24,000 nucleotides of DNA, from NCBI GenBank assembly GCA_050043105.1, contig JBHJIV010000157.1, positions 1,470 to 25,469 on the forward strand, given 5' to 3'. Of the stretch, positions 2,129-24,000 are shown piece after piece. Source of the stretch: Leptolyngbyaceae cyanobacterium (GTDB lineage Bacteria; Cyanobacteriota; Cyanobacteriia; Phormidesmidales; Phormidesmidaceae). How positions within the stretch are numbered: the stretch's first letter is position 1; each line of letters starts with the position of its first letter. The notes below the pieces were generated by a model. The model ran no database searches, was not told where the DNA came from, and saw only the letters and a program-made list of their open reading frames with translations. The position numbers were made by a program, and so were the translations under genes.

Positions 2129-2509
2129 TTAAAAACTGGTGCGTAATGAAGAGAAAATTTGATCAGATATCGTCATCGGATCGTAAGGTTTAGTAATAAT
2201 CGATGAGACATCTAACTTGCCAAAGAATTCTTTCTCGTGAGACTGAGCTTTGGCTGTCAAGATAATGACCGGGATCTTTTGTGTTTTGGGGTTATTTTTT
2301 AAACGTTTCAAAATTGTTAGCCCATCCATACCCGGCATCATCATATCTAACAAGATGACGTCGAGTGTCTCTGACTGTGCGATCTCAATTCCCTCAGGCC
2401 CATTACTGGCTTTTAACACATCCCAGTGACCCGTAATCTCTAAGCAAAGCTGTGTTGCTTCTCGAATGTCGGCATCATCGTCAATAATGAGAATACGCCT
2501 AGTCGTCAT
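2129..2509 (-). CDS. rfpC: RfpC, single-domain CheY-like response regulator of the FaRLiP regulatory trio
   Basis: 126 aa from the internal ATG (complement of 2507-2509): MTTRRILIIDDDADIRE...VILLDMMMPGMDG...ILTAK, a receiver domain with all acidic-pocket residues. The longer 193-aa ORF-track version overlaps the rfpA 3' end and is rejected. Context is immediately downstream of rfpB-rfpA. Confidence 0.85.
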   Translation of the reverse strand: MTTRRILIIDDDADIREATQLCLEITGHWDVLKASNGPEGIEIAQSETLDVILLDMMMPGMDGLTILKRLKNNPKTQKIPVIILTAKAQSHEKEFFGKLDVSSIITKPYDPMTISDQIFSSLRTSF

Positions 2510-5093
2510 CGGTGGAGGTCTCCTGTTGAAAAAATGGAGCGGAAGTGTCTTCTCTAGAAACTCTGGGTAATATGGGCAGGGTAAAGTAGAAGGTACTCCC
2601 GGCCCCAACAGCGCTCTGGGCCCAAATTTTCCCCTCGTGCTTTTGCACAATGCTGCGGCAGATGGCAAGTCCCAAACCCGTTCCCCCCTGGTGACCAACG
2701 TCGGACCCATCTAGTTGCTCAAAGCGATCAAAAATAACCTCGACTTTATCTTTGGGAATTCCCTGCCCGTAATCTTTAACGGCGATTAGCAACAGTGACT
2801 CAGCAATCGCTAAACCAGCCTGTATCGCATCTCTCCCGTTATTATCTAAGCTTTTTTCGATAAATGATACATTCTTGACATGAATCTGCTGAGCATTGAC
2901 CTCAACAACGGTGCCAGCAGGAGAGAACTTGATCGCATTACTCAGTAAGTTAGTCAGAGTTTGAATGATCCTATCCGGTGCGACCCATAGCTGAACTGAA
3001 AGCGGAGAAACAATCAGTTGAATATCGTGCTTCTCGGCCATAGCCCGCATTTCATCTGCAGCTTGAGACATAATACTAGACAGATTACAGGTTCTTTTAT
3101 TAAGGTCTACCTTGCCGAGCTTAATACGCTCAACATCTAAAATATCGTTGATTAATCGTACATGTCTGTTTGTTTTTGAAAACGCGATTTCGTCCATGCG
3201 CTGGCGTTTGGCATCTGAGATATCTATTGTTTCTTGGGCCAATAGCCCCAACGCTGCTCGGATGGAGGTTAACGGCGTTCGTAATTCATGACTGACAACG
3301 GCAATAAATTCATCTTTCATCGATTCAATCACTTGCCGTTCGGTAATATCCTTAAAGATAACAACTGCACCAACAATCGTATCATTCTCATAAATCGGGG
3401 TGCTGACGTATTCTGTAGGAAATTCAAATCTCCCCAGCCGTTGAAAGATGTCACCAGCGACATGACAGGTTTGACCCTGTTTTAAGGTCTTAAAGATAGG
3501 GTTCTGTTGCCAACTGTAGGGTATTTTTTCTGACGATGCATGATTTACCAGCCTGTGCATAAATTGACCGATGAGTTTCTCTTTTGCATAACACAATATT
3601 CTTGCAGCGGCGGTGTTGACAAACTCCTTTTTACCGTCAGGATCTAGAACATAAATACCCTCACCTGCAGAATTAAGAATCAGTTCATTTTGATGACTAA
3701 GACGCTTGAGTGAATCCCGAGCCTGCTGCAGTTCTCTCAGGGTACGCTCTCGTTCTTCAATTTCTTGTTTTAGGTCTTCATTGAGCTGCTGCAGTTCGAG
3801 GGTGCGCTGTAGTACCCGCGACTCCAAGTCAGCATTTAATAATTGAACTTCTCGATATAGCTGAGTTTGATAGATAATTGAGGCAAATCGGTCGGACAGC
3901 TCATGAAAAAGACCAACTTCATGGGCTGTCCAAGGATTGGCCTGATCCTGCTTTAGCTCTCGCCAAGTTTCAAAAGATTGACGTGGGCGCTGCTGACGTG
4001 GGTCAGAGGTGTCTAGTTTGCCTGCCCAAATAGTTTCATAATCAATAGACTGACGAAACAGGCTCAGATATCCGAGAATACGATTGTGATGGGTTAGCTT
4101 AGCAATCATTACACTTCGAATACCGCCACCGATTAGGGCAGACGTCAGTGTCCATGAAAGCTGAGTCTGTTTGATATCAGACATAACCCACAGTTGACCA
4201 ACTGACTGATTAGGGGATTCAGTCTCAAGCCAGCGTTGCCAGTCTGGGAGCTGCTCTAAGATTTGCTGGTGGCGTTTAGGTAAAACAATCTTGGTTAGCT
4301 CAGGTTGAAGACCATTAAGCACGAGCTGACCCTTGGATTCTGCATCGTTTTTTGTAATATAGAGTCTGCCACCTACACTTTGTAAGTCTCTAACTGTCTG
4401 GTCAAGAGCCTTTTGCAAAGAATCTTGGGGTGTAGAATGCAGACGTGAGACAACTTGATTGATAATTGCCTCATGTCGTCCTTGTAGGCGGGTCAGGCGC
4501 AGTAGATTAGCATGGCCAATCGCCACTGCAACTTGATCGGCAATTAGCTGAACCACCTCTAATTCTTTACGACTAAACCTGCGGGGGGCACTATTGTGGG
4601 CCACTAACAGCCCCCAAAGCTGATGGCGGTGAAAAATGGGTACAGCCAAAGACGCTTGTACTCCCATTGCCATTAAATAGTCAACATGACAGGGGTCAAC
4701 CGGACGAACCCACAGGTTAGTTTTTAGAGGCTCCTGAGTTGTTTTATTAATCAGTGGACTGATGCCGATTTCTCGTTTTTTAACGTTAACAATCGTGCGC
4801 TGTCGGGCCTTGATAAACATCTCACGAGCGTGCTCTGGAATATCACCTGCTGGAAACCGATGGCCTAGTAGTGAGGGCAACCGTTCGTTTCGAATGGCCT
4901 CTGCAATCACTTCGCCACTATTGTCGTCATCAAACCGATAAACTTTGACCCGATCGGTTCCTAAGAACCCTCTCATTTCGTTGACAGTAGCGCTTAAAAT
5001 TTCAGGTAGCTCAATCGACTGACGAATGCGGTCGGTCATTCGATGCAACAGTTCCTCAGGGGTTTTAATTGCTCGAATAGATTGGAGAGTCAT
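2499..5093 (-). CDS. rfpA: RfpA, knotless phytochrome-type sensor histidine kinase (GAF-GAF-coiled coil-PAS-HisKA-HATPase)
   Basis: The GAF domain starts almost at the N-terminus, with no N-terminal PAS. It has the canonical bilin-binding motif VRPVDPCHVDYL (Cys codon at complement of 4689-4691). Downstream are a second GAF-like region, a coiled coil (LESRVLQRTLELQQLNEDLKQEIEERERTLRELQQARD), a PAS domain, the H-box VSHELRTPLTSI and the G-boxes DYGQGIP / GGTGLGLAI. I place the start at ATG 5093. The ORF-track start at 5225 is a TTG directly abutting the rfpB stop. Confidence 0.85.
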   Translation of the reverse strand: MTLQSIRAIKTPEELLHRMTDRIRQSIELPEILSATVNEMRGFLGTDRVKVYRFDDDNSGEVIAEAIRNERLPSLLGHRFPAGDIPEHAREMFIKARQRTIVNVKKREIGISPLINKTTQEPLKTNLWVRPVDPCHVDYLMAMGVQASLAVPIFHRHQLWGLLVAHNSAPRRFSRKELEVVQLIADQVAVAIGHANLLRLTRLQGRHEAIINQVVSRLHSTPQDSLQKALDQTVRDLQSVGGRLYITKNDAESKGQLVLNGLQPELTKIVLPKRHQQILEQLPDWQRWLETESPNQSVGQLWVMSDIKQTQLSWTLTSALIGGGIRSVMIAKLTHHNRILGYLSLFRQSIDYETIWAGKLDTSDPRQQRPRQSFETWRELKQDQANPWTAHEVGLFHELSDRFASIIYQTQLYREVQLLNADLESRVLQRTLELQQLNEDLKQEIEERERTLRELQQARDSLKRLSHQNELILNSAGEGIYVLDPDGKKEFVNTAAARILCYAKEKLIGQFMHRLVNHASSEKIPYSWQQNPIFKTLKQGQTCHVAGDIFQRLGRFEFPTEYVSTPIYENDTIVGAVVIFKDITERQVIESMKDEFIAVVSHELRTPLTSIRAALGLLAQETIDISDAKRQRMDEIAFSKTNRHVRLINDILDVERIKLGKVDLNKRTCNLSSIMSQAADEMRAMAEKHDIQLIVSPLSVQLWVAPDRIIQTLTNLLSNAIKFSPAGTVVEVNAQQIHVKNVSFIEKSLDNNGRDAIQAGLAIAESLLLIAVKDYGQGIPKDKVEVIFDRFEQLDGSDVGHQGGTGLGLAICRSIVQKHEGKIWAQSAVGAGSTFYFTLPILPRVSREDTSAPFFQQETSTDDD

Positions 5094-5225
5094 GAGAAAA
5101 GCAGGGGTATAACGGTTTCTAAAATTGAGCTGGTTTCTTGAGCTATGCCTGCATTGTTCAATTCTCTTTGGAAGTGCAAACGTCTCCAAGATGTAAAATA
5201 GAGGGTTGAGCCCTGGCGCGATCAA

Positions 5226-7151: not shown

Positions 7152-7477
7152 AATTGATTGCCTGTATTAAACAGTTTTTTATTAGTGAAATTGAGTTAAA
7201 TCGGTGATGTTGTCTGAATGTATGGTCCATTTTTTTATTTAAATAAATATTAATGAATTCTCCCTTAACTTATCACTGAGTTTACAAAAGTTATATTTGT
7301 TATTAATCTAAAATTCAGCGGTGTGAGGCTCAAAAGCTTTTCTACTTCTTGATACATTCTCGATATAGAAGGCTGTTTATAAAAATCTTCTGTGGATAAA
7401 AGTAGTGAATAGCTAGAGGGGAAGATGTCTTACCCAAATTTTTGGTGTCTCGTTAAGTCTCCCCTCTGGATGCTTAC

Positions 7478-7618
7478 TCAAGGTGTGCCATGAAAATAGG
7501 TGCCATACTGTAAGCCGGGAAAAATGCGATTTAGTTCAATCATCACTCCAGATAAAATAACCAGAGTGGCTGCGGCCATGATGGGGGCACTGGTCAAATA
7601 TTTGATGAAATATTGCAT
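7478..7618 (-). CDS. psaJ2: Photosystem I subunit IX (PsaJ), far-red paralog
   Basis: 46 aa from the internal ATG (complement of 7616-7618), preceded by AGGAG: MQYFIKYLTSAPIMAAATLVILSGVMIELNRIFPGLQYG.... It matches the PsaJ pattern (..FLSTAPV....L...AG.LIEFNRF.P). The 29-codon upstream extension in the ORF track has no homology. Confidence 0.8.
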   Translation of the reverse strand: MQYFIKYLTSAPIMAAATLVILSGVMIELNRIFPGLQYGTYFHGTP

Positions 7619-7727
7619 AGAATTCTCCTGGTTAAAACATTGATATTGCTGTTCCTCGGGACGGTTTTGGTTGTGGCAGTTAAATAGCCACGGCTCTCGA
7701 CTCATGCCCTCAGCGATCGCAACCCAT

Positions 7728-8210: not shown

Positions 8211-8249
8211 AACACTGTCTCCTATTAGATTAAACCAAACTAAACCGGC

Positions 8250-8477: not shown

Positions 8478-8528
8478 GGGGCTCCTTTAGATGTCTAAAC
8501 AGCAATTCAATTGTTGTTGGGTCCGCGT

Positions 8529-9236: not shown

Positions 9237-11468
9237 TCACGGAAATCGGCTCGCTGTCGACGCAATTAAAAATGCGCCATAGGTAGCAATGTAGCCAACG
9301 GTAAAATGGGTCAGCCCCACTAGCCGGGCCTGTACGATTGATAGGGCAACCGGTTTATCTTTGGGATATCCAAAGGATAACGGTGTATGTTCATGGGCCC
9401 ACAAGAGTGTTTCAATCAGTTCTTGCCAATAGCCCCGCCAGGTAATTAGGAACATAAAGCTCACAGCCCAAGCCAGGTGGCCAAAGAGAAACATCCAGGC
9501 CCAAACGGCCAGATTATTGGTGCCATAGACGTTATATCCATTGATCAGCTGGGATGAATTGAGCCATAGATAGTCACGGAACCAGCCCATCAGATATGTG
9601 GAGCTTTCGTTAAACTGGGCAACATTACCACTCCAAATGGCTAAATGTTTCCAATGCCAGTAAAAGGTGATCCACCCCAGGGTATTGCGCATCCAATACA
9701 TGGCTAAATAGAATGTATCCCAGGCGGAAATATCACAGGTGCCGCCACGGCCTGGCCCATCGCAGGGAAAGCTGTAGCCAAAATCTTTTTTATCTGGCAT
9801 TAGCTTAGAACCACGGGCATCCAATGCGCCTTTGACTAAAATCAAGGTGGTGACATGGAGACCAAGTGCGATCGCATGGTGAACCAAGAAATCGCCAGGA
9901 CCAATGGTGAGAAATAGCGAATTAGTACCGCTGTTAATGGCGTCTAGCCACCCTGGCAACCAGACATCGCCATGGTTAGGCCAGGCGGTGGTGGCAATAC
10001 TATCCGAGTTCGATAGCAGGCTATTGATACCGTATAGGGTTTTGCCGTGAAACGCCTGAATCCACTGGGCAAAAACAGGTTCCACCAGAATCTGTTTTTC
10101 AGGTGCACCAAACGCCACCTCACAGTCGTTGAGCACATAGAGACCCAGGGTATGGAAGCCTAAAAACAGAGAGACCCAGCTCAAGTGAGAGATAATGGCC
10201 TCTTTATGGTTTAGCACCCGAGACAGCACATTATCTTCGTTCGCCTGTGGATCATAGTCACGGATTAAGAAAATAGCACCGTGGGCAAAGGCCCCCACCA
10301 TCAAGAACCCAGCAATATACTGGTGGTGAGTATACAACGCCGACATGGTGGTGTAATCACGCGCCAAAAAGGCATAAGGGGGCATGGAGTACATGTGCTG
10401 AGCGACCAATGAGCACACCACCCCTAAACACGCCAGGTGCCACCCGAGTTGAAAGTGAAGAGAATTGTTGTAGTCATCATAGATGCCCTTATGGCCACGA
10501 CCGGTACGCGGTGCAATAAAGAAACCACTCCATCCAGGCCCTTGGAGAGACTCGGTCATTTCTTTAATGCTGTGACCAATACCAAAGTTGGTGCGATACA
10601 TGTGACCAGCAATGATAAAGATAACGGCAATGGCAAGATGATGATGGGCCATGTCCGTTAGCCACAGAGACTCGGTTTGAGGATGAAAGCCTCCCAAAAA
10701 GGTGAGAATGGCCGTGCCTGCTCCCTGAGCGCTGTTAAATAGGTGGTCTGCGGTATCAGGATTTTGAGCATAAACACCCCAGTTGCCTGTAAAGAATGGC
10801 GTTAGTCCGGCGGGGTGGGGCGGCGATGCCAGCAGGTTGTCCCAGCCGACGTGCCGACCGCGTGATTCAGGGATGGCTACATGAATTAAATGCCCGGCCC
10901 ACGCCAGGGAGCTGACGCCAAACAAACCTGCCAAATGGTGGTTCAGGCGCGATTCAGCATTCTTAAACCAGGCCAGACTTGGACGAAACCGAGGCTGCAG
11001 GTGTAAAAACCCTGCATAGAGCATCACCGCTGCTAGCACCAACAAAAATATTGACCCCACAAACAGGTCGCTGTTGGTGCGCATGCCAATGGTGTACCAC
11101 CAGTGATAAACGCCGGAGTAGCAAATATCGACGGGGTTGTTGGCCCCGGCCTGGGTATAAGCCTCAATCGCAGCTGGTCCAAACTGGGCATCCCAAATAG
11201 CGTGGGCAATGGGTGACGTATTTAAAGGATCTTGAATCCATCTTTCAAAATTGCCCTGCCAGGCCACATGAAACAAAATGCCTGATATCCATAAAAAGAT
11301 AATGGCGAGATGCCCAAAATGGGAGGCGAAAATCCTTTGATAAAGACTTTCCTCCGTCATCCCGTCATGGCTTTCAAAGTCATGGGCCGTGGCGATGGAA
11401 TAAAAGAGTCGACGCGTGGTCGGGTCTCTCTGTAGATCCTGACTAAATTTTGGAAATTTTGTCGCCAT
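9237..11468 (-). CDS. psaB2: Photosystem I P700 apoprotein A2 (PsaB), far-red paralog
   Basis: 743 aa: [23 protein letters not shown]...[18 protein letters not shown] (FX cluster Cys pair). Collinear with PsaB throughout. Confidence 0.95.
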
Positions 11469-11531
11469 GGTTCTAAATTGAGCTTTCAGTAACGCATTTG
11501 AGAAAATTAAACAGTGAGAGTTAAACAGCTG

Positions 11532-13935: not shown

Positions 13936-15102
13936 CACTCCGGTTGATGTGTCTGCAGCGTTAATAAACTCAGCGTCTTCTCCAAGAAAGATAGGAAATG
14001 TTGTTTTACGGGTATCTTTGACCGCATAAATACCCAAGTTTGCCTGTACGACAACATCAGACCATGTCGGCACAACTGTCTTTTGAAAAGACTGTCCTAG
14101 CGGCAACCGATCAAACCCCAAAGCTGCCATATCTACGCCTATAGCCGCTGACCAAATGCCTGCTACCGGTAAAGCGGCAAGTAAAAAATGGACAGCGCGA
14201 GATGTCTCAAACGTTGCCCCTCGCCATAGTAGTTTCTGTTGATAGGCCTGAGTATGCTCAAAGCTATAGGTGCGATTGCTCTTTTTTGGCCGTTCTGCTA
14301 AAACAGAATGCTGCTCCGAGTGACGCACCAGCGCAGACGTGACCAAAGCCCCATGCAATGAGCAGAGTAACGCCCCACCAAACACGCCGATTACCCCCAG
14401 CTGGTGAAAGGGGTTAGCAAGAATATTATGGTCAGCCTGAAATTCCAGCATAAAGGTAAATGTTCCGGAAATTCCGAGAGGCATACCCGAAGCAAAACCG
14501 CCTTGACCGATAGGGTAGATCAACAACACTGAGACCGCTGCCGCAACTGGGGCTGTAAACGCTAGCGAAATCCAGGGACGCATGCCCAAACGATAGCTCA
14601 GTTCCCATTCTCGATCTTGATAGCTAATGCTACCAATGATAACGTGCAGCACAATTAGCTGATATGGACCCCCGTTAACCAGCCATTCGTCTAAAGAGGC
14701 CGCCTCCCAAATTGGATAAAAATGAAGTCCAATTGCTGCTGATGTCGGCACAACGGCGGCCGTAATCACATTATTACCGTCCAATAGAGCACCGGAAATA
14801 ACTCTCCCTGTACCCTCTATATCAACAGCAGGGGCGGCTATAAACGCCAGTATGAAGACAATGGCGGCCGTAGACAGAGTGGGAAACATAATCATCCCAA
14901 ACCAGCCCACATAGATTCGATTTTCGGTACTGGTCACCCACCGGCAGAAACGCTCCCAGGGAGAAATTGGCGCAGCCGCATCCACGCAAATAGCACGTCT
15001 CGATGGAGGGTCTACATTGGAGTGACCACTACCAGATAGGGTAGGCGACTCCAACTGTTTTAGAGATGATTTAGTAGTAATCACTTTGCTAAGCTGTGTC
15101 AT
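13927..15102 (-). CDS. chlF: Chlorophyll f synthase ChlF (PsbA4, super-rogue D1)
   Basis: 391-aa D1 homolog: [15 protein letters not shown]...[13 protein letters not shown]...[13 protein letters not shown]. It has YQDREWE where D1 has YMGREWE (QD motif; codons at complement of 14614-14619). FASGMPLG replaces FSDGMPLG (D170 lost). There is no HE...H...D.A C-terminal Mn-ligand set, and an N-terminal extension of about 35 aa is present. Confidence 0.9.
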
Positions 15103-15154
15103 CTAAAGCCTTGCAGTAAAGTTGTTATTTGAAGCAGTTTGACGTGACCGGGTT

Positions 15155-15186
15155 TTCTATTTGCTTCCACTGGAAGTCAGATAGAA
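15155..15186. promoter_or_regulatory. Interrupted palindrome 53-84 nt upstream of the chlF start codon (candidate operator or 5'-UTR hairpin)
   Basis: ttctat-ttg-cttcca-c-tggaag-tcag-atagaa. Two 6-bp arms on each side pair perfectly, and the centre has a 3-versus-4-nt mismatch. It lies in the 644-bp chlF/psbV divergent region. Confidence 0.25.
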
Positions 15187-15514
15187 AAATCTCTTGAAGG
15201 CACGAGCCGATTTCGACTCTCACTTCTCGACTAATTAACAAGCGCCTTTCAATCACCGTTCACGAAACCAAAGATAGTTGAATTAACAGTAGGGAAACTA
15301 TAGAAACAAAAGATGGAAAACTAATGAAGATAAAAATCCCCTATAGAAAAAGTTACAGTTTAGATACAGATACGTTATTGGGTACTGTCAAGCGCCTATG
15401 TTCTCTTTAAAGGATTTAGCCTGACTAACGTATAAGAAAAGGGTATGATATCTTCAGGCTGTAGCATACAAAGCCTGAGTCAATCGATTCGATATTGATT
15501 CAAGTAAGTTGCTG

Positions 15515-15562
15515 TGCGAGATTTTTTGAAAAAGTTATCTATGCCAGCATAGAAATCTCGCA
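15515..15562. promoter_or_regulatory. 10-bp perfect inverted repeat with a nested 6-bp palindrome in the chlF/psbV divergent region
   Basis: tgcgagattt (15515-15524) and aaatctcgca (15553-15562), enclosing ctatgc-ca-gcatag. It lies about 185-230 nt upstream of the psbV ATG. Confidence 0.25.
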
Positions 15563-15746
15563 TTAATGTTCTGCATTTGAGGGTCTAGAACTATTAAAAC
15601 CCTGATGAGCCAAGGAGAATTTTCTCCTGACTTAAAAAATCTAAACTAAGATTTTTTGACCGACGCTGTACAGGGTACTTCAAGGATAACGCACTGAGTT
15701 AGTGGGTGTTGAGGCGTTAGCAAAACAATTTTAGGAGAAAATCATA

Positions 15747-16271
15747 ATGCATTTCCATCTCAAAAAAATCTCAATCAAGCCTATCATCTCTACGATTTTT
15801 ACACTGTTGCTCTCGTCCATTTTATGGATAACTGTTGGGGATGACGTGGCCGGAGCGGTTGAAATTAATCAGGCTACTCGTACCGTACCGCTAAATGATG
15901 CAGGCGATCAAGTCACAGTAAGTGTTAAGCAGTTTACTACGGGGCAGCGAAAGTTTAATAGCAACTGTGCCCAGTGCCACTTAGATGGAGGTACCAAAAC
16001 CAATCCTGATGTCGATCTGGGTGCCGAACGGTTGTTACTGGCAACGCCCTCACGCAATAATATTAAGAGCATGATCGAGTATCTAGAAAATCCCACGACC
16101 TATGATGGATTAACGTCCCTAGAAGAGCTACATCCCTCACTCGCTCGTTCTGATCTCTTTCCTAAAATGCGAGAGCTAACGGAGGAGGATTTAATTGCGA
16201 TTTCAAGCTACATACTAATCCAGCCAAAAATTGTCGGTGAGCAGTGGGCTGGTGGTAAACCAAACCGGTAG
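15747..16271 (+). CDS. psbV: Cytochrome c550 (PsbV) paralog, PSII lumenal extrinsic subunit
   Basis: 174 aa with a signal peptide, then TVPLNDAGDQVTVSVKQFTTGQRKFNSNCAQCHLDGGTKTNP...ATPSRNNI..MIEYLENPTTYDG...ELHPSLARSDLFPKMRELTEEDL. It is collinear with canonical PsbV, including the CxxCH heme motif and the distal His in HPSL. AGGAGA lies 9 nt upstream of the ATG. Confidence 0.85.
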   Translation: MHFHLKKISIKPIISTIFTLLLSSILWITVGDDVAGAVEINQATRTVPLNDAGDQVTVSVKQFTTGQRKFNSNCAQCHLDGGTKTNPDVDLGAERLLLATPSRNNIKSMIEYLENPTTYDGLTSLEELHPSLARSDLFPKMRELTEEDLIAISSYILIQPKIVGEQWAGGKPNR

Positions 16272-16322
16272 CTGTAGACAAGCAAAAAGCCAGATTAGAC
16301 TGGCTTTTTGCTTGTCTACAGC
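16271..16322. terminator. Bidirectional intrinsic terminator shared by convergent psbV (+) and psbO-psbF-nblA (-)
   Basis: Perfect 23-bp inverted repeat: gctgtagacaagcaaaaagccag (16271-16293), loop attaga (16294-16299), ctggctttttgcttgtctacagc (16300-16322). The core GCCAG/CTGGC stem is flanked by an A5 tract on one side and a T5 tract on the other, so it reads as a terminator on both strands. It begins at the last base of the psbV stop codon and ends 9 nt from the nblA stop. Confidence 0.8.
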
Positions 16323-16331
16323 TTGAGAGAT

Positions 16332-16499
16332 TTAAGGATTTCTGATTAAATGCTTAACCAAATTCTCTCTCATCATCATTAGCTGCATGATGTCTATGAT
16401 ATATTCTTGAGCTTGAATAACTGTCAGCCCCTTGACCTGCTCTCTTAAAATTTGTATCTCAAACTGTTGCTCTAAGGTCAAATCTCCTGGCATTCCCAT
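16332..16499 (-). CDS. nblA: NblA-family phycobilisome degradation (proteolysis adaptor) protein
   Basis: 55 aa from the ATG (complement of 16497-16499), with GGAGGAG 8 nt upstream: MGMPGDLTLEQQFEIQILREQVKGLTVIQAQEYIIDIMQLMMMRENLVKHLIRNP. It aligns along its whole length with remembered NblA/Ycf18 sequences (LS.EQQF.........QV..........F.......M..EN......R). The 93-aa ORF-track version extends into psbF in another frame and is rejected. Confidence 0.8.
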   Translation of the reverse strand: MGMPGDLTLEQQFEIQILREQVKGLTVIQAQEYIIDIMQLMMMRENLVKHLIRNP

Positions 16500-16531
16500 A
16501 ATAATTGCTCCTCCATCGATTAAATGTGGCC

Positions 16532-16666
16532 TTAGCGCTGAACAAACTGCATCGCTGCGATCGCACCTAAGAAAAATACTGTCGGAATCCCCAGAGCATG
16601 TACTGCCAGCCATCTGATAGTAAAAATAGGATACCGAATCTCCTGGTCACGGTTGATATTAGCCAT
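16532..16666 (-). CDS. psbF: Cytochrome b559 beta subunit (PsbF) paralog; small ORF not in the ORF track
   Basis: Manual base-by-base reverse-complement translation gives [44 protein letters not shown] followed by a stop (44 aa). It is near-identical in pattern to canonical PsbF (..[31 protein letters not shown]), including the heme-ligand His. AAGAGG lies about 9 nt upstream. It starts 22 nt after the psbO stop. Confidence 0.85.
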
Positions 16667-16688
16667 CGGAAAAACCTCTTATTTACAA

Positions 16689-17513
16689 TTAAGCAACTGC
16701 TTGGTCGATCCGACCATAGAACTGACCTTGAATTCTGACATCCATCGGCTCTTTAGCACCAAAATCAGTATCAGAAGGTTGATTGCTTTCAAATAACCCA
16801 GCAATTTCTCCTGTTTTTCGATTGACTCGAGTGATTTGTAGAGAAATCTCCCCTTCACCCACCTCAAAGGACTTGCTGTTTTGACGGGAAAATTTCTCCC
16901 GATCTGCCTGAATTGGGAATCCTACTGCTGCATCATATCCTGATGATAATCCCCGTCCTTTTGGATCAATAAAATTGGATGTGCGATAGGGAGGTACCTG
17001 GAATGTTCCCACTAGTCGGGTTGTTGGGCTTAGCTTATTTGAGACATCTTGATTTTTAGCCACAAGTCCTTTAATCGTAAATAGCAGAGCAATCCGCTCA
17101 CCATTGGGAGGCTGTACCGTTACGGGCTGAAAGTCAAATCCCCCCTGCTCAGCAAAAGTGATGTTGCCATCAGAATCGACTTGTAAAGAACCACTTACTT
17201 GATCAAGACTAAAACTCTCGCGGGTGAGGGGTTTTGAAACTACGAAATCATTCTCCTGACTCTTGACCATAGAAGAGCCTTTTACTAGAAATGTCTCAGG
17301 TTGTAAACACAACCCATTAAGTTGATACGACTGATTAGCATCTATAGCAATTGCATCCCGACTGCTGCGTGACAGTTGAGGACAGTTATTGGCTAGACCA
17401 CTACCCTTGATGTCATCGTAGCTTAGTGAGCTAGCCTGTGGGCCGCCACTGCAGGCGGTAATTAGTCCAAAGCACAAGACTAATAAACCAGTTATTAACG
17501 TACGATATTTCAT
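16689..17513 (-). CDS. psbO: Manganese-stabilising protein PsbO paralog, PSII lumenal extrinsic subunit
   Basis: 274 aa from the ATG (complement of 17511-17513; an alternative ATG is at 17528): MKYRTLITGLLVLCFGLITACSGG...LSYDDIKGSGLANNCPQL...GLCLQPETFLVK...FQPVTVQPPNGERIALLFTIKGLVA...VPPYRTSNFIDPKGRG.SSGYD...TGEIAGLFESNQPSDTDFGAKEP.DVRIQGQFYGRI. It is collinear with cyanobacterial PsbO, including both disulfide cysteines. Confidence 0.9.
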   Translation of the reverse strand: MKYRTLITGLLVLCFGLITACSGGPQASSLSYDDIKGSGLANNCPQLSRSSRDAIAIDANQSYQLNGLCLQPETFLVKGSSMVKSQENDFVVSKPLTRESFSLDQVSGSLQVDSDGNITFAEQGGFDFQPVTVQPPNGERIALLFTIKGLVAKNQDVSNKLSPTTRLVGTFQVPPYRTSNFIDPKGRGLSSGYDAAVGFPIQADREKFSRQNSKSFEVGEGEISLQITRVNRKTGEIAGLFESNQPSDTDFGAKEPMDVRIQGQFYGRIDQAVA

Positions 17514-17659
17514 TTTTTGTTCTCTCATTAATGGCGTAGGCGCGTAACCAGACGAAAGCGCACTCGCAAATTTGTGAAAAGATGATAGTCCACACGATAA
17601 ATTCCCCCACAAAAAAATGGAGAACATATGAAGAGAGAGTTTATGTATCGCTGATTATT

Positions 17660-17695
17660 AACTTATGTAAAGCGATTTTCATATTTTCATAAGTT
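17660..17695. promoter_or_regulatory. 8-bp inverted repeat enclosing a perfect tandem 8-mer, in the psbO/apc divergent region
   Basis: aacttatg (17660-17667) and cataagtt (17688-17695). Inside is attttcat-attttcat (17675-17682 and 17683-17690). The background is AT-rich, so a chance occurrence is plausible. Confidence 0.2.
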
Positions 17696-17879
17696 CTCCA
17701 TTTTTTTTTCCTATTCTTCTTGCAAGCTTTAGTAAAACAAGTCTTCCTTACTGCTCAGGTGAGCATCTAGCTTTTTTAGCCAGATGTTTTCTAAAGAGTA
17801 AGACTCTAAATCTTGTTGGCCTGATGCAAGCGATAAATGCCTTCAATCAGCTATGTAGTCTAACGGAGAATGAATCACG

Positions 17880-18356
17880 ATGAGCCTGGTTACAGAACTC
17901 ATTCTGGGTGCAGATAGTGAAGCTCGCTATTTAGCTCCAAAGGAACTGCGGATTTTTCAAGACTTTGCCAAAACTGGAGAACAGCGTATTCGGATCGCCA
18001 GAGCGCTGGCAGAAAATGAACAGCGTATTGTGCAAAACGGTAGTCAGAAATTTTGGGAACGTTGTCCAAATACGCCAAGCAATAGCGGAAACGATCGTAA
18101 AACAGCCTCTTGTCAACGAGATCAAGGCTGGTATGTTCGTTTAATTGCTTATTCTATTTTGGCCGGGAGCGAACGCCCGTTAGAAGAGATTGGTACAGTC
18201 GGTATCAAAGCAATGTACAACAATCTAGAAATTCCGATTCGCAATATTGCAGAATGCATGCGCTGTCTTAAAGAAGAGGCAATGGCTCTTCTAAGTGAAG
18301 AAGATGCTCAAGAAGTAGCTCCATACTTTGATTTGATCATTCATTCACTTTTGTAA
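17880..18356 (+). CDS. Allophycocyanin alpha-type subunit, far-red paralog (ApcA2/ApcD2/ApcD5 class; exact paralog not assignable by eye)
   Basis: 158 aa: MSLVTELILGADSEARYLAPKELRIFQDF..TGEQRIRIA...KTASCQRDQGWYVRLIAYSILAG...VAPYFDLII. This is the AP alpha globin fold with the chromophore Cys at residue 78. It has the divergent PNTPSNSGN segment where canonical ApcA has ...SPGGNAYG.... Confidence 0.9.
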   Translation: MSLVTELILGADSEARYLAPKELRIFQDFAKTGEQRIRIARALAENEQRIVQNGSQKFWERCPNTPSNSGNDRKTASCQRDQGWYVRLIAYSILAGSERPLEEIGTVGIKAMYNNLEIPIRNIAECMRCLKEEAMALLSEEDAQEVAPYFDLIIHSLL

Positions 18357-18417
18357 ATCGCCGACTTAAATATTGTTGGGACCGTTAAATCATTTTCTAA
18401 ATTCAAGGAGAATATCC

Positions 18418-18903
18418 ATGCAAGATGCAATTACCACCTTAATTAATTCTTCTGATGCCCAGGGTAGATATTTAGACGATTCGTCGTTAGACAATTTACA
18501 AAACTATTTTCGCAGTGGTGATTTGCGGGCGCGGGCGGCTATGTCCATCAGTGCCAATACCTCCATAATTGTGACTAAGACAGTGGCTAAAGCACTGCTC
18601 TACACAGACATCACGGCTCCCGGTGGCAACATGTATACCTGTCGTCGCTATGCAGCCTGTGTTCGCGATATGGAAATTTTCCTACGTTACGCAACCTACG
18701 CCATGCTAGCGGGCGATCCATCAATTCTAGATGAGCGAGTACTCAATGGATTAAAAGAGACCTATAACTCGTTGGGGGTTCCTGTCGGCGCGACAGTGCG
18801 GGCCGTACAGTCGATGAAGGAAGTCGTCAATGAGATGTTAGGTGCAGAAGCTGGGCGAGAGATGGGAGTGTGTTTTGACCATATTTGCTCGGGCTTAAGC
18901 TAG
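18418..18903 (+). CDS. apcB2: Allophycocyanin beta-type subunit, far-red paralog
   Basis: 161 aa from ATG 18418, with AAGGAG 7 nt upstream: [31 protein letters not shown]...[54 protein letters not shown]. This is the ApcB pattern with the chromophore Cys in AACVRD. The ORF-track start at 18373 is a TTG leader. Confidence 0.9.
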
Positions 18904-18985
18904 CTCAATAAAATAACCCACTCCACAATCTCTTTATTAGAGACTTGTCCATAGCTAACTCTATTGTGTATTGGGACCATCCATC

Positions 18986-19465
18986 ATGAGTATCATCACT
19001 CAGGCGATCGCCAATGCTGATCGTGAGACCCGCTATCTCAGCCAGGGAGAATTAGATAGTATTCGCCTCTTTTTTCAAGATGGGCAACAGCGTCTGCGGA
19101 TTGCCTATATTTTGACTCAGAATGTGCAAACAATTGTAGAGAAAGGTAGTCAACGATTTTGGCAGCGTCATCCTATAACACCCAGTAATAGCGGCAATCC
19201 CACATTTCGGAGTTCCTGTCTGCGAGATCAAAGCTGGTTTATTCGTCTGATTTCCTATGCGGTTGTAGTGGGTGATATCGACCCCATTCAACTCAGCGGA
19301 GTGAGAGGGGTCAAAGAGATGTACCTGTCTCTAGAAGTCCCTCTTCGAAACGTCGCCGAATGTATGCGCTGCCTTAAAGAAGAAACCTTGGAACTATTGA
19401 GTTTAGAGGATGCGGCAGAGGTTGCCCCCTACTTTGACTATCTGATTCAAGGATTAATGCCCTAA
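18986..19465 (+). CDS. Allophycocyanin alpha-type subunit, far-red paralog (second copy)
   Basis: 159 aa from ATG 18986: MSIITQAIANADRETRYLSQGELDSIRLFF...ITPSNSGNPTFRSSCLRDQSWFIRLISYAVVVGD...VAPYFDYLIQGLMP. Closely related to the 17880 gene (shared RN.AECMRCLKEE....LLS.EDA.EVAPYFD). The chromophore Cys is present. Confidence 0.9.
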   Translation: MSIITQAIANADRETRYLSQGELDSIRLFFQDGQQRLRIAYILTQNVQTIVEKGSQRFWQRHPITPSNSGNPTFRSSCLRDQSWFIRLISYAVVVGDIDPIQLSGVRGVKEMYLSLEVPLRNVAECMRCLKEETLELLSLEDAAEVAPYFDYLIQGLMP

Positions 19466-19492
19466 TAACGTTTTAGATTTGGAGCTTTTGAA

Positions 19493-21880
19493 ATGCCCGA
19501 TCAGATTAATGGGGGTAGCCCAGTCATTCATCCACAGCTGTATCACACTGTCCCAACGGCTGTTATTACCGAAGCACAACAGCGAGATCGTTATCTAAAC
19601 CGGAGTGAAGCCACAGAACTCTCTACCTTTTTTGATTCTGGGTTAAAACGATTAGAGATTGCCAAAAATCTCACTCAGCATGCCGACAAAATCATTGCCG
19701 CTGGTGCTAATCGTATTTTTGTTGGCGGCAATTCAATGGCTTATCTAGAGCGTCCTAAAGACCCTCTAGGATTGCCAGGCTCAGGTTACTATGTAGGAGA
19801 AGATTATCTTTCTGCAGCCCGTAAGCAAAAAGAGAACTCTTCACGGATTCTTCCTCGTTCTGTAGATCCTACCAATAACTTAGCTGAATGGTTTAAGGGG
19901 CTCATGGCTGGGGGTAAACCTAGCCTTCCCAGCCGCTTTCGTGCTATTGATGTATCTCGTTATGGCGTTGTTCGGATGAAACGCTCTCTACGAGATTTAA
20001 GCTGGTTTTTGCGATATGTAACCTATGCAATTGTGGCAGGCGATACCAGCATTCTCAGTGTCAACACCCGAGGACTTCGAGGGGTTATTCCAGAAGATGT
20101 AACGTTGGCCACTGTTGTAGCCTTACGAGAAATGCAGTGGAAAGCGCTCACGTATTTCCCATCTGAGTCTGCAGCCGCGTCACTGGTCAAGCGATATTTT
20201 GATGTGTTGATCGCCGATTATTTAATCGAAAAACCCTCGCCTCAGCTGCGTGCTGGTGTTTCAAAACATCATCCGGGGCTACAGCTGCCCCAGAGCTATA
20301 GCGACAGTGCTAACCCTCAACCCCGGTGGGTAATCAAGCCCAATCTGCCCGATATTGAAAAAAATGAGGTGTTGCAGGCGGCCTATCGACAGATCTTTGA
20401 GCGCGATATTACTCCGCTGTACGGTGAGACTTTACTAGAGCTGGCTTCACAGCTTAAAAGCGGTCTCTGGTCAATGAAAGAGTTTATTCGCCAGTTAGGC
20501 AAATCGAGACTCTATCGACAGCTATATTATGAACCCTACACCCTCAGCCGCAGTATCGAACTGGCCTGTCGGCATTTCTTAGGGCGAGGGCTAAGCTGCC
20601 TAGAAGAGTTTCAGGGCTATTTTGAAGTCGTCTCTAACCAGGGTTTTTCGGCGTTGGTCGACACCTTGATCAACTCACAAGAATATGCTGATTATTTTGG
20701 TGAGGAGACTGTTCCCTACATTAGAGGGTTGGGGTTAGAAGCTCAGGAATGCAGGAATTGGGGACCGCAGCTAGATCTGTTCAAATACAGTACGCCGGTA
20801 CGTAAGGTGTGTCAGTTTGTCACCACCTTTGCTGGATATCAACAGCCTTTACCCAACCAGCATCCCTATGGTGTCGGTAATGATCCACTAGAAATCCAGT
20901 TCGGGGCCATATTTCCCCAAGAAACTCGTAATCCTAGAATGCAGCCCGCCCACTTTAGCGAGGACAGTCGACGGATTTTAATTAGCAATGGGGCCGGTAA
21001 TGGACATAGCGGCTTGAGCGACCTAATGCATCTGGGTAGGGCACCGGGTTCTCCCCAGCATCATCTCCTGAGATGGGAGTCTGTAGGCCGTCCCTTAAAA
21101 CAGAGGTCAAACCATGCTAATGGTGCTTCACCTAGCATGAATCTTACCCATCACTCCCATGATGCCGTCATTCATGCTGCCTATCGTCAAGTATTTGGCC
21201 ATGAAATATTTGATGGCCAACGTCAGTCTGTGGTCGAAATGCAGCTCAAAGCAGGCAAGATCACCTTACGAGAGTTTATCCGCCAGCTTGCCAAGTCTCG
21301 CCTATTTCGCGAGATGTCTTGGGAAAAGCTTTATGTTACCAAGGCCATTGAATATATCCATCGCAGATTACTAGGACGGCCCACCTATGGACGTCGAGAA
21401 ATGGCTCAGTTTTATGATATCTGTGCCTACGACGGGTTTTATGCCCTTGTTGATGCTTTGATAGACAGTGATGAGTATATTCGGGTCTTTGGCGAAACCA
21501 TAGTCCCTTACGAGCGCTATCTTACTCCGCGTGGGTTTGCGCTACGCTCACCGCAGGGACCTGTGGCATGGTCAAAACCTAGAGACAATCCACCCACTGT
21601 CGGTGAGTGGATGCGCAGTCATCCTGCTCCTGTTGCGTCGATGGTGTCTAATTTTGAGGCTGGCGTGACAACGCTTACAACGAACTCACGTCAACAAGCT
21701 CCCACCTTGAATGAAGCCCAATTAGCGCAACCTCAGACAACAGAATTATCTCAAAAGAATTTGGCTATCCATCCCAATAGCGGTGATACCTATGCAGAAA
21801 GTACGGTTAGACAGGCTGTCTCTGTTGCTGAGCCGCAGCCTGAGGCGACGGGACAACAAGAGGGCGAAAGTGAGCAGTAG
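19493..21880 (+). CDS. apcE2: Phycobilisome core-membrane linker ApcE, far-red paralog with two REP (linker) domains
   Basis: 795 aa. The N-terminal phycobiliprotein-like domain (QQRDRYLNRSEATELSTFF...WFLRYVTYAIVAGD) is interrupted by a loop insertion. Exactly two PBS-linker repeats follow: AAYRQIFERDI...FIRQLGKSRLYR...LINSQEYADYFGEETVPY and AAYRQVFGHEI...FIRQLAKSRLFR...LIDSDEYIRVFGETIVPY. GGAG lies 8 nt upstream of the ATG. Confidence 0.9.
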   Translation: MPDQINGGSPVIHPQLYHTVPTAVITEAQQRDRYLNRSEATELSTFFDSGLKRLEIAKNLTQHADKIIAAGANRIFVGGNSMAYLERPKDPLGLPGSGYYVGEDYLSAARKQKENSSRILPRSVDPTNNLAEWFKGLMAGGKPSLPSRFRAIDVSRYGVVRMKRSLRDLSWFLRYVTYAIVAGDTSILSVNTRGLRGVIPEDVTLATVVALREMQWKALTYFPSESAAASLVKRYFDVLIADYLIEKPSPQLRAGVSKHHPGLQLPQSYSDSANPQPRWVIKPNLPDIEKNEVLQAAYRQIFERDITPLYGETLLELASQLKSGLWSMKEFIRQLGKSRLYRQLYYEPYTLSRSIELACRHFLGRGLSCLEEFQGYFEVVSNQGFSALVDTLINSQEYADYFGEETVPYIRGLGLEAQECRNWGPQLDLFKYSTPVRKVCQFVTTFAGYQQPLPNQHPYGVGNDPLEIQFGAIFPQETRNPRMQPAHFSEDSRRILISNGAGNGHSGLSDLMHLGRAPGSPQHHLLRWESVGRPLKQRSNHANGASPSMNLTHHSHDAVIHAAYRQVFGHEIFDGQRQSVVEMQLKAGKITLREFIRQLAKSRLFREMSWEKLYVTKAIEYIHRRLLGRPTYGRREMAQFYDICAYDGFYALVDALIDSDEYIRVFGETIVPYERYLTPRGFALRSPQGPVAWSKPRDNPPTVGEWMRSHPAPVASMVSNFEAGVTTLTTNSRQQAPTLNEAQLAQPQTTELSQKNLAIHPNSGDTYAESTVRQAVSVAEPQPEATGQQEGESEQ

Positions 21881-21904
21881 GTCCCTTTTCCGCCTTAGAA
21901 TCTG

Positions 21905-21942
21905 GTTTCAAAAAACTCTGACGAGTCTGAAACTGCTTTATT
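21905..21942 (+). terminator. Weak candidate hairpin / attenuator downstream of apcE2
   Basis: gtttca (21905-21910) pairs with tgaaac (21928-21933). An inner actc/gagt stem encloses a tgac loop, and tgctttatt follows. The stem is imperfect, with an internal loop, so this is at best a partial terminator. Confidence 0.25.
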
Positions 21943-22035
21943 GGCAGCTTAACCCTTTGAACTATCACATTTATGTTGGTTGGTTTGGGGGTGTGTGTAT
22001 CTATCCCAAACATCAATATTCCAAACTCCAAAACC

Positions 22036-22569
22036 ATGAGTATCGTTAAACAGGTCATTCTCAATGCCGATGAAGAACTTCGCTATCCTACTCCTGGTGA
22101 GCTACGGATGATTCGCACTTTCTACAAAACAGGACCAGAGCGCATTCGGCTAGCTTAAACGTAAGAAGAAAAAGCTCAGGCGATCGTAGATAGAGGCACT
22201 CGAAAATTTTGGCAGCTTTGTCCGAGGACACCGAGCAACAGTGGTGATCGCCGCAAAACCGAAGCAGCTAAGCGAGATGTCGGTTGGTATATCCGTTTAA
22301 TTAGCTACTGTTTGTTAGCTGGCAACAATCGTCCATTAAGAGAGATTGGCTTAGTTGGAATGAAAGAGCTATATACCAATATTGGTATTCCGCTCACTAA
22401 CATTTTGCAGTATATCCGGTGTCTCAAAGCGGAGGCTATTGCTTTGCTAGATGAGACCGATGCAGCCGCTGTCATTCCCTACTTTGATGAAATCATTCAG
22501 GAATTGGCTCTGCCAGGGCCACCCTATTTTATGAACGATGGTATCGGTGAGAGTGAATCAGTCGTTTAA
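22036..22569 (+). pseudogene. Allophycocyanin alpha-type far-red paralog (Cys-less, ApcD3-like) interrupted by two in-frame TAA codons
   Basis: A single frame from ATG 22036 reads MSIVKQVILNADEELRYPTPGELRMIRTFYKTGPERIRLA*T*EEKAQAIVDRGTRKFWQLCPRTPSNSGDRRKTEAAKRDVGWYIRLISYCLLAGNN...VIPYFDEIIQELALPGPPYFMNDGIGESESVV. The stops are at 22156-22158 and 22162-22164. There is no frameshift, and the reading is collinear with the two intact alpha paralogs. The ORF track splits it into 21973-22158 and 22312-22569. Confidence 0.75.
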
Positions 22570-22618
22570 TCGTTTTTGAAAACCCACATTCAACAGCAGT
22601 CTGATCAAGGAGACTATT

Positions 22619-23677
22619 ATGACAATTTCAATGGGTGCGTTAAAACCAGCTAGAAGCTGGATAGGGGGACTTGACGACTGGTTAAAACGAGACAGCTATG
22701 TGTTTGTTGGCTGGTCAGGATTACTCTTGTTTCCCTGTGCGTACTTGGCTATAGGGGCCTGGTTTACCGGCACCTCATTTGTTACATCTTGGTATACTCA
22801 TGGTCTTGTCAGCTCTTATTTAGAAGGCTGTAATGTTCTCACCACTGCTGTGTCTACCCCGGCTGAAAGCATGGGGCATTCACTTTTGTTTCTATGGGGA
22901 CCAGAGGCCGGTGGGGATTTTACCCGCTGGTGTCAGATTGGTGGGCTGTGGAATTTTACTGCTCTTCACGGTGCACTCGGGCTGATGGGCTTTATGCTGA
23001 GGCAGATTGAGCTTGCCCGGTTAGTGGGTATTCGTCCCTACAACGCTATTGCTTTTTCGGCTCCAATTGCAGTTTTTGTGGCAACGTTTTTAATCTATCC
23101 CCTGGGTCAGTCCAGCTGGTTTTTTGGGCCTAGTTTTGGAGTGGCCGCCATCTTTCGATTTCTTCTATTTTTCCAGGGATTTCATAACTACACCCTAAAT
23201 CCCTTTCACATGATGGGTGTAGCAGGGGTATTAGGCGCTGCATTGCTCTGTGCCATCCATGGAGCAACCGTACAAAATACCCTTTTCAAGGACTCGGAAG
23301 GTAAAAACACATTTAGAGGGTTCTCGACAACTCAAGCGGAGGAAACCTACTCTATGGTGACGGCTAATCGCTTTTGGTCTCAGATCTTTGGTATTGCATT
23401 TTCCAATAAGCGCTGGCTTCACTTCTTTATGCTGTTTGTGCCAGTAACGGGCTTGTGGATGAGTGCAATTGGCATGATTGGTCTGGCCTTTAATTTGCGG
23501 GCTTATGACTTTGTGAGTCAGGAAATCCGGGCAGCGGAAGACCCTGAATATGAGACGTTTTACACCAAAAATGTCTTGCTCAATGAAGGGGTACGGGCCT
23601 GGGCATCAGAGCTTGATCAACCAGCGAAAAAGTTTGTCTTTCCAGAGGAGGTGTTACCTCGTGGCTTTGCTGAATAA
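22619..23677 (+). CDS. psbD3: Photosystem II D2 protein (PsbD), far-red paralog
   Basis: 352 aa: [44 protein letters not shown]...[25 protein letters not shown]...[23 protein letters not shown]...FPEEVLPRG. Full-length and collinear with D2. AAGGAGA lies upstream. Confidence 0.95.
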
Positions 23678-23781
23678 AGCAGGCAGCTCTCACTTTAATT
23701 CTGTTGGGTATCGGTGCAAAGTTCTAACAATCGCTGACCAACAACTGCACAACTACTCACATTTTGAGGAGGTCTAATTCT

Positions 23782-24000
23782 GTGGAAACACCCATTGAAA
23801 CTACTCCAGATCTATCTGTTACGCTTCCCACCGAAGCTGGCGCATTGTTCGCTCCAAGCGGACCAGGCTATAATGAAGAATCCAGTGGCTACGCTTGGTG
23901 GGCGGGTAATGCCCGATTTATTACCCCTGAGCTCACGGGTCGATTCTTAGGGGCCCATGTTGCCCATGCTGGGCTGATCGCTCTATGGGCTGGCGGTATG
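23782..24000 (+). CDS. psbC2: Photosystem II CP43 apoprotein (PsbC), far-red paralog; 5' end only, continues past the window
   Basis: GTG at 23782, preceded by GAGGAGG (23766-23772). My translation is [73 protein letters not shown], which matches the CP43 N-terminus (..[13 protein letters not shown]...[21 protein letters not shown]). The frame is closed upstream by TAA at 23725-23727. Confidence 0.85.

Follow-up and report, generated by a model that had tools for sequence, protein, structure and literature searches.

Does the 24,000-nucleotide stretch of Leptolyngbyaceae DNA analyzed here (the window) hold a genuine far-red light photoacclimation (FaRLiP) gene cluster, and is that cluster intact? 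The original prediction had read positions 2129–24000 as such a cluster, with its left edge in view. We found that the far-red paralog matches, the residues of the chlorophyll f synthase ChlF, the VIPEDV motif of ApcE2, the Rfp architectures, the synteny and the promoter motif all agree with this interpretation. Judged from its sequence, the window very probably contains most of a complete, canonical FaRLiP cluster of an uncultured cyanobacterium related to Nodosilineales-type strains, in which two apparent stop codons in apcD3 would be assembly errors. The source is an uncultured, marine-type filamentous cyanobacterium.

Every gene class named in the original prediction was found in its place by open reading frame (ORF) listing and NCBIfam/Pfam profile searches. 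The D1 homolog does have ChlF hallmarks (Mn ligands lost, QD motif present), the knotless-phytochrome kinase and two response regulators match the published architectures of RfpA, RfpB, and RfpC, and the two-REP ApcE, three allophycocyanin alpha-type genes, and one beta gene were all confirmed by Pfam and by matches to PDB entry 8UHE. The list was nonetheless incomplete: all the genes on it are present, but psbO, psbF, nblA, and psbV (15747–17513) had been overlooked. The third alpha-type gene, apcD3, had also been taken as ordinary, with its two in-frame TAA codons going unnoticed.

Far-red paralogs, ChlF, and regulators

To assign paralog identity, each product was ranked by score against all PDB chain sequences. 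As had been predicted, the products are closer by score to FaRLiP paralogs than to white-light forms: a far-red paralog was the top PDB match for all eight core products tested (PsaA, PsaB, PsbD, ApcD5, ApcD2, ApcD3, ApcB2, and ApcE2). PsaA scored highest against 7S3D (1605 bits), 6KMX (1596), 6PNJ/7LX0 (1544), and 9EYS (1509), the last of which we take to be a far-red photosystem I (PSI), compared with 1411 bits for the best white-light chain. Against the white-light PSI of H. hongdechloris (6KMW), it scored only 1341 bits. At 781 amino acids (aa), PsaA2 also has the longer far-red length. For PsaB, the leading scores were 1602 bits (6KMX, chain 6kmx_aB) and 1594 bits (7S3D, chain 7s3d_B), vs 1467 bits for the best white-light chain. 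The identities of entries 7S3D, 6KMX, 7LX0, and 6KMW as far-red or white-light PSI follow PMC10694217. PsaL2, PsaI2, PsaF2, and PsaJ2 were assigned by family and by conserved synteny in >25 FaRLiP loci. PsaI2 is about twice the usual PsaI length, with an acidic, Ser-rich C-terminal tail of ~35 aa that is kept in four relatives (L001–L003 and L008) and not in more distant FaRLiP loci.

The photosystem II (PSII) subunit PsbD3 best matched the D chain of 8EQM, the far-red PSII of Synechococcus 7335 (PMC9843442), and that of 7SA3, whose sequence is the same. Among the antenna genes, each Apc product best matched its namesake chain in 8UHE, 45–150 bits above white-light forms; the names used here (ApcD5, ApcD2, ApcD3, ApcB2, and ApcE2) are the molecule names in the 8UHE PDB records. 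ApcE2 carries the motif VIPEDV at residue 198, which has been used as a far-red-specific ApcE2 query (preprint 10.1101/2024.05.15.594131), and ApcD3 is without the canonical Cys78. A reading of the locus as a low-light photoacclimation (LoLiP; apcD4/apcB3) cluster was considered and set aside, as neither the PDB matches nor the ChlF motifs support it.

The D1-like product encoded next to psaA2 scored 444 bits with the psbA equivalog model, under its cutoff of 596. Alignment to a reference D1, T. elongatus PsbA1, whose landmarks (Y161, H190, H198, H215, and H272) and ligand positions were all verified, showed that the Mn-cluster ligands are lost (D170S, E189D, H332K, E333D, H337T, and D342F, with no equivalent of A344), as are the QB-site residues. 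The same alignment placed a QD motif (Q162-D163) at D1 positions 127–128, and YZ, H190, H198, H215, and H272 are retained, the P680 and Fe ligands among them. We take loss of the Mn ligands together with the QD motif to be the signature of ChlF.

The regulators likewise fit the FaRLiP pattern. RfpA begins with a GAF domain and no PAS domain before it, has a DPCH Cys-His pair (bilin Cys) at residues 133–136, and keeps HisKA H602 intact. Gene calls on clean contigs give 864 aa for RfpA, and a 908-aa ORF start was rejected. At its ATG end, rfpC shares 11 nt with the stop end of rfpA, and the exact RfpC protein is on record in 7 contigs. RfpB contains an Hpt-like domain at residues 267–341 (Pfam 30.8 bits, above cutoff), in which H294 lies in the motif (A/S)HSL(T/A)G(A/V)LGIFG; this His is invariant in 23 of the 23 RfpB homologs fetched. 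Orthology of the Rfp proteins rests on synteny and on 46–92% identity to rfpB/rfpA of other clusters, and the domain architectures agree with published descriptions of RfpA, RfpB, and RfpC (PMC4390838). According to the same source, long RfpB proteins with two receivers, as here, are those of non-heterocystous strains, and heterocystous RfpB is short.

Cluster layout, edges, and promoter motif

From the ORF listing and profile searches, the minus-strand order is chlF-psaA2-B2-L2-I2-F2-J2-rfpB-rfpA-rfpC and the plus-strand order is apcD5-apcB2-apcD2-apcE2-apcD3-psbD3-psbC2 (Table 1). Positions 2129–24000, ~22 kb in all, make up the left four-fifths of a FaRLiP cluster arranged as in Nodosilineales-type ("lineage VI") genomes.

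Table 1. Features of the window, in window positions, with the evidence for each
Feature	Position	Strand	Evidence and remarks
MscS-family mechanosensitive channel gene, partial	1..825	-	Translation; runs off left window end; outside cluster
Trehalase remnant, 5'-truncated	989..2011	-	Pfam Trehalase positions 187-510 of 512; first non-cluster gene
rfpC, single-domain CheY-like response regulator, 126 aa	2129..2509	-	Pfam Response_reg 92 bits
rfpA, knotless phytochrome histidine kinase, 864 aa	2499..5093	-	GAF-PHY-PAS-HisKA-HATPase (Pfam)
rfpB, DNA-binding response regulator, long form, 641 aa	5226..7151	-	REC-winged helix-Hpt-like-REC (Pfam)
psaJ2, 46 aa	7478..7618	-	NCBIfam PsaJ; 46 aa with PF01701 in L043; syntenic in FaRLiP loci
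psaF2, 160 aa	7728..8210	-	Pfam PSI_PsaF 124 bits; synteny
psaI2, 75 aa	8250..8477	-	NCBIfam PsaI over residues 8-43
psaL2, 187 aa	8529..9092	-	NCBIfam PsaL; 187 aa also in L039 gene call
psaB2, 743 aa	9237..11468	-	TIGR01336 1437 bits; far-red PDB matches
psaA2, 781 aa	11532..13877	-	Far-red PSI PDB matches
chlF (psbA4), chlorophyll f synthase, 391 aa	13927..15102	-	Sub-cutoff psbA score and residue pattern
Long FaRLiP motif upstream of chlF	15297..15358	-	62-nt bipartite: 5' box CTGTAACTTTTTCTA, gap, 3' box CTTCATTAGTTTTCCATCTTT...
psbV (cytochrome c550), 174 aa	15747..16271	+	TIGR03045 200 bits (cutoff 178); CAQCH heme motif
nblA paralog, 55 aa	16332..16499	-	Pfam NblA 61 bits; last gene of psbO-psbF-nblA operon
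psbF paralog (cytochrome b559 beta), 44 aa	16532..16666	-	Translation; PF00283 in L039; 100% identical to L001
psbO paralog, 274 aa	16689..17513	-	Pfam MSP 328 bits; 8eqm_O 358 bits vs 296 next
Short FaRLiP motif upstream of psbO	17613..17632	-	~100 nt upstream of real psbO start
Long FaRLiP motif core upstream of apcD5	17686..17705	+	~175 nt upstream; conserved block ~17655-17725
apcD5 (= apcA2), 158 aa	17880..18356	+	8uhe_A 'ApcD5' 312 bits vs <=162 white-light alpha
apcB2, 161 aa	18418..18903	+	8uhe_B 'ApcB2' 305 bits vs ~259 white-light beta
apcD2, 159 aa	18986..19465	+	8uhe_I 'ApcD2' 251 bits vs ~155 white-light
apcE2, 795 aa, two REP (linker) domains	19493..21880	+	Pfam PBS_linker_poly x2; 8uhe_K 'ApcE2' 1034 vs <=920 bits
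apcD3, 177 codons	22036..22569	+	8uhe_C 'ApcD3' 290 bits vs ~155 white-light
psbD3, 352 aa	22619..23677	+	7sa3_D/8eqm_D 725 bits vs 681 best white-light chain
psbC2 N-terminus, GTG start	23782..24000	+	First 73 codons; runs off window; 482 aa in L039
Window-private sites	3163-3649, 8320, 9688-9697, 10338, 13312, 14630-14643, 17605-17626		Comparison with near-identical assemblies
Window-private sites (continued)	19383-19393, 20911, 21715, 22156-22163, 22672-22698, 23604		Comparison with near-identical assemblies

The remainder of the cluster could be followed in contig L039 (99.8% identity to the window). Beyond the right end of the window, this contig encodes psbC2 (482 aa), psbB2 (509 aa), and psbH2 (65 aa), then a 48-aa ORF, a DUF1257 protein (128 aa), and a minus-strand psbA of 359 aa that is presumably psbA3, and the cluster ends near window-equivalent 29.1 kb. 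As this continuation supplies the genes missing from the window, all 19 core genes and psbH2 are present; psbC2, psbB2, psbH2, and psbA3 are counted as putative far-red forms from the gene calls in L039. The 48-aa ORF and DUF1257 gene lie between psbH2 and psbA3 (L039:19282–19859, ~27.2–27.7 kb window-equivalent), and the 48-aa ORF, which had no Pfam match, is possibly the psbH2' of preprint 10.1101/2024.05.15.594131.

At the left, the cluster edge had been placed at about 2012–2128 with ordinary genes beyond it, and both points held: the same junction recurs in four independent assemblies (L043–L046), and the trehalase remnant and MscS gene were confirmed by translation and Pfam. The trehalase abuts the end of rfpC across a spacer of 117 nt and is missing ~186 N-terminal residues. 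An identical 338-aa trehalase fragment adjoins rfpC in L043–L046, and these four assemblies repeat without change the full order from rfpC through the spacer and the truncated trehalase to MscS; in L043, the MscS gene is called as 371 aa with MS_channel Pfam domains. The truncated trehalase at the edge suggests the scar of a past rearrangement, and rearrangements in FaRLiP clusters are concentrated downstream of the rfp genes (preprint 10.1101/2024.05.15.594131). Searched for tRNAs and, at the Rfam gathering cutoffs, for RNA families, the window gave no match, so no element of either kind marks the cluster edge.

We then compared the locus with its relatives. A scan of species-representative genomes with ChlF as query returned 38 loci, onto which the window proteins were mapped. 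Eleven genomes, including Leptolyngbya cf. ectocarpi LEGE 11479, Oscillatoria sp. CS-180, and Nodosilinea sp. LEGE 07088, share the layout psbC2-psbD3-apcD3-E2-D2-B2-D5 / psbO-psbF-(nblA) / psbV / chlF-psaA2B2L2I2F2J2-rfpB-rfpA. In a twelfth (L012), the same apc and psb genes are rearranged: there, the apc genes and psbD3-psbC2 share the strand of chlF and lie upstream of it. In a further locus (L030), two ChlF-like matches in tandem lie downstream of rfpB-rfpA-rfpC. The architecture described for lineage VI, or Nodosilineales, has chlF, psa, and then rfp genes, with psbO2, psbV2, and psbF2 as optional members (preprint 10.1101/2024.05.15.594131), and the layout of the window is assigned to lineage VI because its order agrees.

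The closest species-representative genome is the metagenome-assembled genome (MAG) "Cyanobacteria bacterium P01_H01_bin.21" (JBCDIX010000025.1; L001). The two loci are collinear over 21 kb, their proteins are 86–100% identical (ChlF 93%, PsaA2/B2 98%, PsbF 100%), and three promoter motifs are placed identically. They differ in that DNA identity is ~93% and the synonymous divergence (dS) is 0.1–0.57, which places them in different species, and in that apcD3 of the MAG is intact. The ratio of nonsynonymous to synonymous divergence (dN/dS) against this relative is 0.02–0.21 for all 19 genes, which shows strong purifying selection across the cluster.

A T-rich motif is known upstream of FaRLiP operons and is absent upstream of rfp genes (preprint 10.1101/2024.05.15.594131). 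We recovered it de novo as TTCATNAGTTYTCCATYTTT, which the window contains three times where chance would give 0; the core of the chlF copy lies at 15309–15328 on the minus strand, ~200 nt upstream of the gene. Of the 38 loci, 32 have the motif upstream of chlF; every one with an apcD5 gene has a copy upstream of that gene, and most have one before psbO, the short psbO form occurring in the window and 8 relatives. It was never found upstream of psbV, psaA2, psbD3, or rfp genes across the loci compared. This distribution implies three putative far-red-controlled transcription units in view, with the rfp genes presumably under separate control, in agreement with the preprint. A scan of positions 15000–18000 for sigma-70 promoter and terminator consensus sequences found them no more often than in shuffled sequence.

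Alternative readings of the island, the stop codons, and the D1-like gene

Between the chlF and apc units lies an island of PSII genes and an nblA paralog. All four of its genes are inside the cluster, with the short motif before the psbO-psbF-nblA unit and none before psbV. psbV and nblA are convergent, with 60 nt between their stop codons, and psbV shares a 644-nt divergent intergenic region with chlF, with no FaRLiP motif of its own. The nblA gene is found in 6 of 11 syntenic relatives and has a dN/dS of 0.056 against L001; lying in a motif-preceded unit, it could couple phycobilisome degradation to far-red light. A longer psbO ORF of 312 aa, starting at 17627, was rejected: a window-private base makes its ATG, which lies over the motif, and the gene is called as 274 aa on clean contigs.

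We consider it somewhat probable that the psbO-psbF-nblA unit belongs to the far-red response. The alternative is that this unit and psbV form a housekeeping operon for PSII and phycobilisome turnover that sits by chance in the cluster. Reports on Synechococcus 7335 lend this alternative weight, since Gisriel et al. state that its two psbF genes "are not modulated by FaRLiP" (PMC8689208), and PsbO1, PsbV1, and PsbF2 of that strain are reported as outside the FaRLiP cluster (PMC8689208; PMC9843442). In the loci compared here, psbV has the FaRLiP motif in none, its product does not score apart from white-light homologs, and nblA is missing in 5 of 11 syntenic relatives. Set against this are the short FaRLiP motif ~100 nt upstream of psbO, seen in the window and the same 8 relatives, and an island position that is constant in 11–12 clusters. 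In addition, psbO2, psbV2, and psbF2 have been counted as optional, lineage-specific FaRLiP genes, psbO being preceded by a short motif (preprint 10.1101/2024.05.15.594131), and the far-red PSII of Synechococcus 7335 preferentially holds the isoforms encoded by the psbO/psbF/psbV operon (PMC9843442). The motif upstream of psbO favors far-red control of psbO-psbF-nblA, though not of psbV, and the housekeeping explanation appears possible but on the whole somewhat improbable.

The next question is whether the cluster is real but decaying, with apcD3 a fresh pseudogene, rfpA damaged, and far-red acclimation impaired or being lost. Partial clusters and pseudogenes do occur in nature (preprint 10.1101/2024.05.15.594131), and apcD3 has in-frame TAA at codons 41 (22156–22158) and 43 (22162–22164), which are K/Q and L in all 12 relatives. 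Exact-protein look-ups with ApcD5 and RfpC led us to contigs of this organism, 99.8% identical to the window, from five samples (ENA ERZ1740070, ERZ23487348, and ERZ4903328; Logan SRR3401489 and SRR22824269). Both near-identical contigs that cover apcD3 (L039 and L040) have it intact, with AAA and TTA in place of the stops. Compared with up to four independent assemblies of this identity, the window has 35 private sites, at all of which those assemblies carry the consensus base. A look-up with the window PsbD3 protein gave no match, because it carries private substitutions. A search of metagenome contigs for the stretch of apcD3 with the stops, allowing degenerate positions, also gave no match.

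The private sites do not resemble real divergence. Transversions account for 33 of them (94%) and transitions for 2, compared with a transition/transversion ratio of 2.19 for true divergence from L001, and they are tightly clustered, 18 of 34 gaps being ≤40 nt against 1.9 expected. The 31 private coding changes comprise 24 nonsynonymous and 7 synonymous changes and strike highly conserved proteins (PsaB2 L594R, ChlF I158S, PsbD3 R26S, and ten in RfpA). In all, RfpA has 13 error-like private substitutions, in its PAS and HisKA regions at residues 482–644 (codons 526–688 of the 908-aa ORF). Without the stops, apcD3 has a dN/dS of 0.046 against L001. A few similar private transversions also occur in other low-coverage assemblies (4.8–6.5x), such as those of L039 at 9862 and 9877. 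The private differences, apcD3 stops included, are almost certainly sequencing or assembly errors, probably from low coverage or damage. Decay of the cluster, for which the two TAA codons and the ten nonsynonymous changes in the PAS/HisKA region of RfpA would otherwise speak, is accordingly very improbable.

Finally, four ChlF-query matches (L034–L037) were only 54–57% identical and had no FaRLiP motif and no psa neighbors; found in Pleurocapsa MAGs, Lyngbya confervoides BDU141951, and Leptolyngbya sp. SIO4C1, they are probably other divergent PsbA paralogs and not ChlF. Such paralogs without Mn ligands exist outside FaRLiP, and these four may be examples, but that the D1-like gene of the window is likewise a "rogue" or sentinel D1 without chlorophyll f synthase activity, in a locus of generic alternative photosystem genes, is scarcely credible given its QD motif, its place directly upstream of psaA2, its conserved chlF motif, its 63–93% identity to syntenic homologs in 34 FaRLiP-type loci, and all the other FaRLiP-specific paralogs alongside.

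Some observations do count against reading the window as an intact FaRLiP cluster. The separation of PsaB is less clean than that of the other products, the Fischerella far-red chain ranking below some white-light chains. PsbV has 8eqm_V as its best PDB match by a margin of just 180 vs 174 bits over white-light. Were the private substitutions real, they would damage both ApcD3 and RfpA, the latter through 10 nonsynonymous changes.

Known systems, proposed mechanism, and meaning

In Synechococcus sp. PCC 7335, a member of Nodosilineales, the cluster has the lineage VI layout and the same gene set (Gan et al. 2014/2015; Ho et al. 2017; Gisriel et al. 2021–2024). Its far-red subunits (7S3D, 7SA3/8EQM, and 8UHE) are the top PDB matches for PsaA2, PsbD3, ApcD5/D2/D3, ApcB2, ApcE2, and PsbO, and it shares with the window the long RfpB with two receivers (PMC4390838) and the group of psbO, psbF, an nblA paralog, and psbV (PMC8689208). 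The two differ in that psbV is loosely described as part of one operon with psbO/psbF/nblA in PCC 7335, whereas here it is convergent, and in that PCC 7335 is cultured whereas the window organism is uncultured. With Chlorogloeopsis fritschii PCC 9212 and Fischerella thermalis PCC 7521, the window shares its core genes and the control logic of RfpABC. These heterocystous strains differ in having a short RfpB without the C-terminal receiver (PMC4390838) and another gene order, and the psbO/psbF/psbV/nblA island is not reported from them, the optional genes being lineage-specific (preprint 10.1101/2024.05.15.594131). Their PsaB2 is also less similar to that of the window than are some white-light PsaB chains.

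Published work on cultured strains supplies a mechanism that we would extend to the window. RfpA, as a knotless phytochrome kinase, would sense far-red light and signal via the CheY-like RfpC and the DNA-binding RfpB. RfpB would then activate promoters with the conserved T-rich motif, which here would drive chlF-psaA2B2L2I2F2J2, apcD5-B2-D2-E2-D3-psbD3-C2 (on into psbB2 and psbH2), and psbO-psbF-nblA. ChlF would make chlorophyll f, and the paralogous subunits of PSI, PSII, and a bicylindrical allophycocyanin core would bind chlorophylls f/d or red-shifted phycocyanobilin, extending photosynthesis to 700–750+ nm.

A second known system, the RcaE/RcaF/RcaC phosphorelay of complementary chromatic acclimation, offers a parallel for the signaling step. 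RcaC also has an HPt domain, and we take the order REC-winged helix-HPt-REC to be RcaC-like; RfpB here has this layout, with a conserved His. The Hpt-like His of RfpB suggests a predicted multi-step phosphorelay in the style of RcaE/F/C. The systems differ in that the RfpA photosensor is of another class (knotless, red/far-red) and the regulon is another one. The paper on RfpABC makes no mention of an HPt domain (PMC4658448).

FaRLiP is a known system whose architecture has already been described, the island is known from relatives of Synechococcus 7335, and near-identical contigs are already public. A literature search with the sample accessions returned no matches. As another uncultured member of the early-branching Nodosilineales-type lineage, the locus adds little new; its value is as an annotated lineage VI example that takes in both the psbO-psbF-nblA/psbV island and the three promoter-motif copies. 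It also carries a caution, namely that low-coverage metagenome contigs can bear clustered transversion errors that mimic pseudogenes and false start codons.

By extending oxygenic photosynthesis beyond 700 nm, FaRLiP is relevant to the ecology of shaded niches and to crop and algae engineering. The locus gives a hint that the NblA paralog and the Hpt-like domain of RfpB may belong to the far-red response. That both would hold together, with a cluster-borne, far-red-induced NblA and a four-step RfpA-RfpC-RfpB phosphorelay through the Hpt-like His, like that of RcaE/F/C, is a tentative proposal drawn from sequence that we regard as unlikely. If true, RfpB would co-induce NblA/ClpC dismantling of white-light phycobilisomes and synthesis of the far-red antenna core, and it would also induce lumenal subunits and cytochrome b559 subunits adapted to far-red PSII.

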